Shown here: piece by piece, positions 9,411 through 10,528 of the stretch
Layout of the letters: each line of letters begins with the position of its first letter
Numbering within the stretch: position 1 is the first letter of the stretch
Virus record (IMG/VR): IMGVR_UViG_2872164251_000003
Location: 1-18,466 of that record
Strand: one strand, 5' to 3'
Source: a virus
Lineage: Duplodnaviria; Heunggongvirae; Uroviricota; Caudoviricetes
Length of the DNA: 18,466 nt
Position numbers and translations under genes: made by a program
The notes under the pieces: model-generated
Database searches by the model: none
What the model saw: the letters and a program-made list of their open reading frames with translations, nothing else
Told to the model about the DNA's origin: nothing

Positions 9411-9561
9411 TGCTCTGTATCAGGTCACTAATACCATCTAAGTGGTTGATTCATAGTGACTGGATATGTTGTGTTTTGCAGTATTGTGCAGTCTATTTTT
9501 TAAGCTAAATGTATTATAATGCATTGATATTAATGATTTTTACTGTTTCTCGGTCAGCTTT
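9411..9561 (+). other. Lambda-type attP P-arm (Int arm-type / IHF / Xis site region) ending in core-like GCTTTTTT
   Basis: Recalled lambda attP P-arm (TCTGTTACAGGTCACTAATACCATCTAAGTAGTTGATTCATAGTGACTG...CGTTCAGCTTTTTTATACTAA) aligns along 9411-9565 at roughly 85% identity, including the two inverted arm-type repeats caggtcactaat / catagtgactgg; homology ends inside the core T-run. Confidence 0.6.

Positions 9562-10528
<967 letters not shown>

Follow-up and report, generated by a model that had tools for sequence, protein, structure and literature searches.

How does a phage attachment site come to stop in the middle of its core and continue as an insertion sequence, and where does the prophage that carried it end? 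Both questions are raised by a junction in the 18,466-nucleotide stretch of DNA analysed here (the window), in which the P arm of a lambda-type attP runs directly into IS629. The window is identical (100%) to positions 718,048-736,513 of CP032513.1, the genome of Shigella flexneri 3b strain SFL1520, whose assembly combined MinION and MiSeq reads (PMC6424224). Public records name the proteins of the window from Shigella flexneri. The coordinates of all features are collected in Table 1.

An attachment core interrupted by IS629

The arm to the left of the junction belongs to a well-represented family of attachment sites. Window positions 9264-9564 matched the attP P-arm region of phage 434 at 87.9% identity over 301 nt (E = 4e-101), HK97 at 89.9% over 198 nt and lambda at 88.1% over 200 nt, with E values across known lambdoid phages of 1e-62 to 1e-107. 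The matches to 434 and HK97 stop on annotated attP core features, and the HK97 match is also annotated as 'sib retroregulation site' and 'attachment site core'. The arm (hereafter P1) contains GGTCACTAAT and ATAGTGACTG, which, from the known structure of lambda attP, we take to be arm-type Int sites; these motifs and the sib/tI hairpin sit at the expected distance from the core. The first-pass annotation had claimed a lambda-type P arm at 9411-9561, and identities of 87.9-89.9% to lambda, 434 and HK97 and of 99.4% to EIEC prophages bear this out.

The EIEC match extends well beyond the arm. Together with ipaH and the tail-fibre genes, the P1 stretch was 99.4% identical over 3,065 nt to ipaHa prophages of EIEC strains VL40, FDAARGOS_944 and FDAARGOS_943, and the order of the late genes equals that of the EIEC prophage in two of the loci compared. 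The ipaH gene is cargo in the b region; its EIEC homologue is annotated ipaHa, and the exact protein was named from Shigella flexneri. The gene remnants between ipaH and P1 are annotated in EIEC as a partial transposase and a partial hypothetical protein, match intS in E. coli genomes and also precede, on the left side, both the P arm of 434-type phages and the second P arm described below. On its other side, this lambdoid prophage is truncated immediately upstream of gene J by the IS1 copy at the start of the window. In FDAARGOS_944 and VL40, where attR was read, the arm leads into a textbook attR, CAGCTTTTTTATACTAA-CTTGAGCGAAACGGG, followed by ybhB and bioA.

In the window, identity to the EIEC prophages ends just past the T-run of the core. 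Alignment shows CAGCTTTTTTTGCGAAGGCGGAG at the breakpoint where the EIEC prophages have CAGCTTTTTTATACTAACTTGAGCG, the canonical attR; the wider stretch spanning the join of P arm and IS629 (9540-9585) reads tttactgtttctcggtcaGCTTTTTTTgcgaaggcggagttcgacc. The final base that can come from the phage alone is T9561 and the earliest that can come from the insertion sequence alone is T9565, the three intervening T residues being common to the phage core and to IS629 positions 342-344. The first-pass placement of the switch at 'about position 342' of the element is therefore exact. Over the same bases the intact insertion sequence reads TCCGCTTATTTTGCGAAG and the phage TCAGCTTTTTTATACTAA. This interval corresponds to positions 1-3 of the 7-bp overlap, so the crossover lies inside the overlap, and it begins at the position established for lambda as that of top-strand cleavage by Int, GCTTT^TTTATAC. 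The position numbering is consistent with Table S1 of PMC5605937. The complete 15-bp core, GCTTTTTTATACTAA, is not present at the junction: GCTTT and TTT are there, and the remainder is replaced by IS629. Because the core is incomplete, the site is a P-O/i' hybrid, neither attP nor a canonical attR. The join is best read as a cut made exactly at the Int crossover and pasted to a look-alike site in IS629.

The junction between core and IS629 is real. A 26-nt string spanning it was found unchanged in 11 further assemblies (12 in all, some of them complete long-read genomes), and the P-arm match has E values near 1e-100; against these two results, and with nothing found in its favour, an origin of the signal in faulty assembly or chance similarity is hardly credible. 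A search of 5,426 complete E. coli genomes with the window junction returned no place covering at least 80% of the query, which indicates that the junction is specific to the Shigella lineage. A literature search returned nothing specific on a core-IS629 junction or on oac beside ybhB.

Table 1 Features of the window, in order of position
Feature	Position	Strand	Basis or remark
IS1 copy, cut by window start	1..753	-	E 8e-43 to NCBIfam IS1 transposase; terminal repeat extends to 753
Lambdoid ipaH prophage, late right end	937..7136	+	lambda_TipJ 2341 bits; EIEC gene order
J	937-4416	+	
lom	4484-5083	+	
Tail fibre	5105-6562	+	
DUF4376 protein	6513-7136	+	
ipaH (IpaHa), type III effector E3 ubiquitin ligase	7316..9079	-	NCBIfam IpaH_Shig 564 bits
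Gene remnants left of P1	9183..9370		IS256-family fragment ~9183-9260; intS-like integrase fragment ~9261-9370
Lambda-type attP P arm (P1)	9376..9561	+	Homology to lambda, 434, HK97 and EIEC prophages
sib/tI hairpin	9376-9410		Within P1
Presumed arm-type Int site GGTCACTAAT	9423-9432		Within P1
Presumed arm-type Int site ATAGTGACTG	9453-9462		Within P1
Left core half GCTTT	9557-9561		Within P1
Crossover interval	9562..9564	+	TTT common to core and IS629 342-344; GCTTT^TTTATAC; alignments
Truncated IS629	9565..10529	+	IS 345-1310 (342-1310 with common TTT)
P22/Sf6-like prophage segment	10530..14802	-	Pfam Head_binding, P22_gp16, Inj_translocase, P22_gp7
Tailspike N-terminus	10530-10831	-	
gp16	10967-12811	-	
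gp20	12808-14214	-	
gp7	14224-14757	-	
Full-length IS629	14803..16112	-	1,310 bp; in tailspike gene; 3-bp target duplication GTT
Rest of Sf6-type tailspike (endorhamnosidase)	16113..18466	+	Continues past window end

Two copies of IS629 lie in the window. For the one at the junction, window positions 9554-10529 were 99.1% identical to a full-length 1,310-bp IS3-family element, the match starting at IS position 334, and 95.7% identical to a copy from O157 annotated IS1203. This copy is incomplete, being without IS 1-341 and having the right inverted repeat only, and a 1-bp deletion after 10033 shifts the frame of its orfB. The second copy has both inverted repeats (TGAACCGCCCCGGG...), an orfA of 108 aa and an orfB of 296 aa (IS3 transposase, 314 bits), and was 95.7% identical to the same O157 copy and 99% identical to other E. 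coli copies. Judged by these identities, both belong to the IS629/IS1203 group of the IS3 family.

Two prophage types at one canonical attB

The first-pass annotation took the junction to mean that the prophage ends inside an insertion sequence. Both flanks of the locus tell otherwise. Within 10 kb to the right of the window, CP032513.1 carries oac, a second lambda-type P arm (P2, 86% identical to P1), the complete core GCTTTTTTATACTAA, the B' half-site CTTGAGCGAAACGGG and ybhB, from which the chromosome continues as ybhB-bioA-bioB-bioF-bioC-bioD-uvrB. The P1-IS629 junction and this P2-O-B' attR co-occur in 10 loci, 9,547 bp apart in uninverted strains (see below) and ~10,385 bp (10.4 kb) apart in the lineage of the window. 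To the left of J, CP032513.1 has IS1, pgl, IS1, ybhH, IS1 and ybhJ; these genes make up the flank of attB on the gal side, turned round as one block. The junction thus lies in the canonical region of lambda attB between gal and bio, and the truncated IS629 sits in a neighbouring oac prophage with its attR 10.4 kb further right. We considered that the bio region and argW might delimit a large inversion and rejected this, as ybhB-bioA follow directly to the right of oac.

Whereas the right end was read in CP032513.1 itself, the left end was read in draft contigs selected by their match to the flank in S. flexneri. Four such contigs are 99.84% identical to CP032513.1 over ybhJ-ybhH and encode the same 726-aa ybhJ allele, compared with 97-99% identity for other E. 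coli over this interval. They read ybhC, CCTGCTTTTTTATACTAAGTTGG, P' and C-terminal int, that is, a conventional attL (ybhC-CTGCTTTTTTATACTAAGTTGG-int) without IS629. The P'-int sequence at this attL is identical over 730 bp to the allele of the EIEC ipaH prophage and has 5 differences from the P22-like allele of the relative described next. Two prophages of different type, both defective, lie between this canonical B-O-P' on the left and P-O-B' on the right; an intact middle P-O-P' is absent from the S. flexneri locus, and the P1-core/IS629 junction stands in its place.

An intact relative of the second prophage is found in E. coli CFSAN061762, where a P22-like prophage occupies attB in the order ybhC-attL-int-xis...portal, coat, gp4, gp10, needle, gp14, three DNA-transfer proteins, tailspike, oac, P arm, core and ybhB. 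It is 98.4% identical to the oac-P2 region of S. flexneri. Judged from its int, xis and att sequences, the P22-like oac phage uses a lambda-type attachment site: one protein accession covers both its Int and that of the EIEC ipaH lambdoid prophage (WP_000533643.1), and another covers the Xis of both (WP_001303849.1). Since Int and Xis are common to both, the ipaH and P22-like phages compete for one attB.

The oac prophage in the window has been rearranged further. The full-length IS629 splits the tailspike gene into a head-binding N-terminal part on the minus strand and a remainder on the plus strand, and that remainder is itself broken by an IS1 at ~16550-17321 with a 9-bp target duplication (TGTCTTATG). 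The usual order in S. flexneri, observed uninverted in 11 of our loci, is P arm, IS629 (342-1310), gp7, gp20, gp16, tailspike N-terminus, IS629 (reversed), tailspike C-terminus and oac. Relative to most S. flexneri, segment 10530-14802 is inverted in the window strain and a few others, and the inversion was made by recombination between the two inverted IS629 copies. The uninverted order in most assemblies places the truncated IS629 ancestrally 45 bp upstream of gp7. One locus with a full insertion sequence upstream of gp7 was considered as the ancestral state and rejected; it is a derived rearrangement of the same scarred locus.

The IS629 site as a target for Int

Whether Int could have used IS629 as a partner can be judged against the secondary sites of lambda, of which Tanouchi and Covert mapped more than 300 in 2017 (PMC5605937). 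They report conservation of T at -1, -2, -3, -5 and -6, of C at -7 and -10 and of A at +5 and +6, and their table takes the middle A of TTTATAC as the centre of attB. In the correct register, the IS629 site has 8 of these 9 positions, keeping the T and C positions and the A at +5; its one left-side mismatch, at -4, is at no conserved position. The sequence that the first-pass annotation quoted for this site, GCTTATTTTGCGAAG, is correct and corresponds to IS 337-351; it is present intact on the minus strand of the full IS629 at 15762-15776. No other site with at least 8 of 9 positions occurs on either strand of the 1,310-bp element, and the 38.7-kb P22-like prophage has 7 and 9 on its two strands (~1 per 4-6 kb per strand). 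Given this rarity, the chance that an arbitrary partner position would be in register is ~2 in 10,000, and an arbitrary endpoint on the phage side would be about as unlikely to fall among the first three bases of the overlap.

The rest of the site is less favourable. Its overlap, TTTTGCG, agrees with TTTATAC at 3 of 7 positions (the first three), and its right half-site is poor, with ~3 of 9 matching in our own alignment. A better site, with 9 of 9 positions and in the same orientation, lies in the tailspike gene at window position 17494 and was not used.

A second non-canonical core junction occurs elsewhere in the species. In S. flexneri 5 str. 8401, int-P'-core is joined to ATCCTTATTA/TTTAT upstream of ygcP (the slash marks the join); in longer form, the junction reads GGGGCATAAATTATCCTTATTA/TTTATAC, directly upstream of ygcP, with a separate frameshifted copy of int. 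The empty ygcO site in E. coli is ATCCTTATTATTTATCCAAAACGG and has 6 of 7 overlap bases as in lambda. This is the exact ygcO site of the experimental screen, in which it (position 2887536) was recovered in 8 samples, the highest among the table rows that we compared and equal to attB (PMC5605937). We considered the int-P' junction at ygcP as the missing partner of the window junction and rejected it, because it has a separate, frameshifted int copy and is at another known secondary site.

Origin of the junction

The observations above establish the anatomy of the locus, the register in which it broke, its tandem context and an Int common to the two phages. From them we infer, tentatively and at a little less than even chance, an intramolecular exchange in a tandem lysogen, between the middle attP and the pseudo-attB in IS629, that deleted ~30 kb. 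In this account the ipaH lambdoid prophage and the P22/Sf6-like oac prophage would have stood in tandem at attB between ybhC and ybhB, in the array B-O-P'...ipaH-P1-O-P'...gp14-[IS629]-gp7...tailspike-oac-P2-O-B', whose middle P1-O-P' would be a complete attP. At the left edge of the overlap, Int, the presumed agent, would have swapped top strands between this attP and the pseudo-attB in the IS629 located 45 bp upstream of gp7 (CCGCTTA/TTTTGCG/AAG, IS 335-351, slashes bounding the overlap). With two sites in direct order on one molecule, such an exchange deletes the ~30 kb between them, a size that we estimated from CFSAN061762. P', int, xis, the early, lysis and head genes, gp14 and IS629 1-341 would have been lost as a circle, leaving P1-GCTTT/TTTTGCG-IS629(349-1310). 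Later, in the window strain, the inverted IS629 copies would have recombined, flipping 10530-14802, and IS1 events would have truncated the left prophage.

The order in which lambda Int exchanges strands is established. An overlap that agrees at 3 of 7 positions and a poor right half-site point to an event that was probably a top-strand exchange, finished by replication or by a host resolvase. A route through the top strand alone predicts an overlap that is entirely of IS type, as observed. Natural tandem pairs of prophages with lambda-type att and an intact middle P-O-P' are found in ExPEC XM and ST540. No genome among those compared was found to combine an intact tandem array with a full-length IS629 ahead of gp7; the scar, or a derivative of it, is present in each of the 24 contigs with this gp7 allele that we read.

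A different sequence of events would yield exactly the present structure, and it draws on the same evidence from the site and its chemistry: the ipaH phage may have integrated into IS629 within a resident P22-like prophage, with homologous recombination between the two directly repeated, nearly identical P'-int-xis stretches later deleting the left half of that prophage along with IS629(1-341). We regard this as a serious contender, if an unlikely one. An occupied primary attB is the classic condition for secondary-site integration, and here attB would already have been occupied by the oac prophage. The ygcO junction is a case of secondary-site integration by this type of Int in the species, and, as the two phages encode identical Int and Xis proteins, the later deletion could draw on ~1.3 kb of homologous coding sequence. 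Deletion within a tandem array is nevertheless favoured, because it needs one event fewer and because a poor site is likelier to be used within a molecule than between molecules, where better chromosomal sites of the ygcO kind exist. The 730 bp next to attL argue weakly in the same direction: integration into a resident P22-like prophage predicts the P22-like allele there, and the EIEC ipaH-prophage allele is seen, although the difference amounts to 5 of 730 positions and the comparison involves one P22-like relative.

Integration into IS629 also predicts a reciprocal junction, unless the left half was lost afterwards. The first-pass annotation proposed looking for one at the other end of the prophage; the flank-matching contigs have the conventional attL there, and none was found, which speaks against simple integration. 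A junction of IS629(1-341) with the core would read CCGCTTATTT(ATAC/TGCG)TAA, the slash separating the two possible overlaps. The exact pattern with the IS-type overlap had 0 matches in IMG/VR, and IS629 preceded P' in none of the ~130 IMG/VR P' arms among the matches listed. The P' arms sampled from those matches and from other loci are in canonical attL or attP sites, save for the ygcP junction and one unrelated oddity. An exact look-up of ~15 billion proteins for the predicted OrfA fusion ending in ...AYLY, and for its frame-shifted variants, returned none. A 98-aa OrfA form ending in ...AYFA does exist, its records being labelled 'partial' and representing three OrfA backgrounds (EFP5823646.1 and EET1064796.1 among them); it could stem from contig ends, a nonsense change, a nested insertion of an IS3-family element (whose ends start TGA) or a GCG/TAA junction. 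As attR in this lineage carries the IS-type overlap, ...AYFA is not the form predicted here, barring mismatch repair.

Int need not have taken part at all. An illegitimate deletion between the T-rich core and IS629, by replication slippage or microhomology-mediated end joining, could have used the TC-GCTT-TTT that the two sites share (9 of 11 positions up to the breakpoint), and the overlap and right half-site of IS629 suit Int poorly. Shigella prophages are also heavily eroded by many mechanisms, as seen in the loci compared and in the description of SFL1520 (PMC6424224). We nonetheless consider such an origin improbable. An Int-independent deletion could have its endpoint anywhere in ~30 kb, but the one observed lies in the three bases that follow the Int cut; its partner is exactly in register with the sole 8-of-9 site of IS629, whereas short T-rich repeats are plentiful elsewhere; and the second non-canonical core junction in the species, at ygcO, is at a proven Int target. 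A lone lambdoid prophage at a secondary chromosomal site in IS629, with IS629(1-341)-core-P' at its other end, is suggested by the junction taken alone and is very improbable in view of the gal-bio flanks on both sides, the complete attR (P2-O-B') 10.4 kb downstream and the conventional attL in contigs matching the S. flexneri flank.

What survives of secondary-site integration as first proposed for this junction is therefore its chemistry, a breakpoint at the Int cut and an IS site with 8 of 9 positions, and not a prophage at an unusual locus. The alternative offered alongside it, that the end of the prophage was deleted or rearranged, is the better fit.

Relation to known systems and implications

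The junction is best read as a natural example of two things that lambda Int is known to do, namely to recombine at secondary sites and to promote deletions that end at att, amid the decay of Shigella prophages driven by insertion sequences. Lambda integrates at secondary attachment sites, as Shimada, Weisberg and Gottesman reportedly described in 1972 and Rutkai et al. in 2003. The S. flexneri locus resembles such integrations in its hybrid junction within the 7-bp overlap, in the conserved T, C and A positions and in an occupied primary attB. It differs in that the target lies inside a mobile element, inside the neighbouring prophage at the primary site, that one of the two hybrid junctions is present and that the overlap agrees at 3 of 7 positions. 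Parkinson, and Davis and Parkinson, reportedly found in 1971 that lambda undergoes Int-dependent deletions of which one end lies at the att crossover. They share with the present case a recombination of attP with a pseudo-site in one molecule, the retention of one att arm and the loss of the intervening DNA; here, however, the attP would be the middle one of a chromosomal tandem array, the pseudo-site comes from an insertion sequence and the role of Int is one that we infer.

The closest structural parallels are the polylysogens of ExPEC XM and ST540, in which gal-bio is occupied by a head-to-tail pair of prophages whose Int and att are of lambda type. In the ExPEC XM pair, a P22-like prophage ends in an acyltransferase gene and a P arm, followed by P'-int-xis of the second prophage; ST540 has a full-length match with a similar arrangement. 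In S. flexneri, by contrast, the P half is fused to IS629, and the P' half and the adjacent 30 kb are gone. The same region was covered in the description of SFL1520, which in the portion available to us reports Sf6 remnants with an intact oac, many upstream transposases and a transposase-rich 'recombination hotspot', and infers recombination and deletion (PMC6424224). That portion makes no mention of att sites, a tandem arrangement, a core-IS629 junction or an IS629 inversion.

The locus carries a lesson for annotation, as a truncated att core is not the end of the prophage region, whose true attR is 10 kb further on. It also offers a natural counterpart to the laboratory screen for secondary sites: the IS629 site fits the motif derived from that screen, and ygcO is occupied in wild S. 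flexneri.

A broader idea, to which we give little credence, is that every copy of IS629 is a portable lambda-type secondary target with a built-in pseudo-attB at IS 335-351. These positions form the start of a stretch that PGAP annotates, in a reference copy, as the AL1L pseudoknot. If the idea were true, core-IS629 fusions would be a recurrent route by which prophages are truncated and locked in IS-rich pathogens such as Shigella and O157, and would also fix cargo genes, here ipaH and oac.

For S. flexneri itself, the locus shows how two cargo genes related to virulence, the effector gene ipaH and the O-antigen acetylase gene oac, were fixed side by side at the lambda attachment site. Phages with one and the same integration module were stacked there in tandem. 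An off-target Int event, or an equivalent deletion, stripped the second phage of its integration, regulatory and head genes.

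Secondary attachment sites and att cores

S. flexneri 5 str. 8401 (CP000266.1, about 2.76 Mb; compared loci L008 11100-11200 and L165 2085-2115) has a lambda-type int gene that is a separate copy and carries a frameshift. Together with its P′ arm and core, this gene abuts ATCCTTATTA/TTTAT directly upstream of ygcP. The junction is exactly the ygcO secondary site of Tanouchi and Covert (2017), which that paper gives as recovered in 8 samples of the screen (PMC5605937). Thus, a lambda secondary site defined in the laboratory is occupied in a wild Shigella strain.

The window itself contains a further match to the secondary-site motif, inside the tailspike gene. 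This sequence, CCGCTTATTTAATGCAAG, has 9/9 conserved positions and points the same way as the IS629 site; it scores higher than that site, yet is not the partner that was used.

A truncated IS629 OrfA of 98 amino acids, ending ...ASAYFA, was found in three different OrfA backgrounds (proteins P0094, P0095 and P0098). Up to 40 contigs, measuring as much as 2.08 Mb, encode it. The stop is exactly the one expected from a GCG/TAA core junction, but the form could also be accounted for by the end of a contig, by a nonsense change or by insertion of a nested IS.

At the ipaH prophage of EIEC FDAARGOS_944, the attL core (L007 1705-1725) has five T residues, CTGCTTTTTATACTAAGTTGG, and attR has six. 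The five-T attL is shared with at least four IMG/VR loci (L052, L064, L103 and L145). With overlaps that differ by 1 bp between attL and attR, excision might be impeded.

Rearrangements within and around the locus

In SFL1520, unlike most S. flexneri assemblies, the segment encoding gp7, gp20, gp16 and the tailspike N terminus is inverted. The truncated and the full copy of IS629 lie in facing orientations, and recombination between them accounts for the inversion. The orfB of the truncated copy is frameshifted by a 1-bp deletion in the window; uninverted strains (locus L009) lack this loss and instead have a 55-bp deletion near the right end of the element, which fuses orfB into a 307-amino-acid ORF whose end is the start of gp7. 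The IS1 copy in the tailspike gene is confined to the lineage of the window (SFL1520 and AFGW01000026).

Features of the inverted segment, the IS elements and the tailspike gene in the window
Feature	Window position	Description	Target duplication
1-bp deletion in truncated IS629 orfB	10030-10036	T missing after 10033	
Inverted segment	10530-14802	gp7, gp20, gp16 and tailspike N terminus	
Full IS629	14803-16112	simple insertion in tailspike gene	GTT
IS1 in tailspike gene	16541-17330		TGTCTTATG (9 bp)
Secondary-site match in tailspike gene	17484-17501	unused	

Rearrangement extends to the flank on the gal side of attB, where ybhJ, ybhH and pgl are inverted as a block with three IS1 copies scattered within it (CP032513.1 708,984-718,800; L157 1-9800). 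Among the genes called in this flank ybhI is absent, whereas other genomes have it between ybhJ and ybhH. One assembly, UIPR01000035.1 (L175), is rearranged further: ipaH lies between ybhB and oac, a placement that apparently arose by recombination of the two P arms. In the same assembly, an IS629 copy with a full left end adjoins gp7, and gp20 and gp16 are missing.

Cargo and integration modules shared between phages

SFL1520 carries a second prophage remnant (CP032513.1 1,192,844-1,216,323; L156), the J protein of which is identical across all 1,159 amino acids. Its ipaH product differs (583 amino acids), and it lies near genes for a DinI-family protein, an IS110-family transposase and an aspartyl-tRNA-synthetase-like protein. 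The lambdoid ipaH prophages of SFL1520 are close copies that differ in cargo and in site.

In EIEC CFSAN029787 (L164 14001-16640), ipaHa lies at the end of a different prophage, accompanied by the b-region remnants known from the window and by the greater part of the P arm. That prophage has baseplate genes, and its neighbours are the remnant of a DUF1175-family gene and a gene of the alpha-2-macroglobulin family. Similarity to the window ends about 58 bp short of the core. The block of ipaH and P arm therefore moves between phage backbones.

The Int and Xis proteins (WP_000533643.1 and WP_001303849.1) have identical accessions in the P22-like oac phage of E. coli CFSAN061762 (L162 and L163) and the lambda-like ipaH phage of EIEC (L006 and L007), and in both phages an intS-like gene fragment directly precedes the P arm on its left. 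Podovirus-type and siphovirus-type temperate phages clearly have an integration module in common here.
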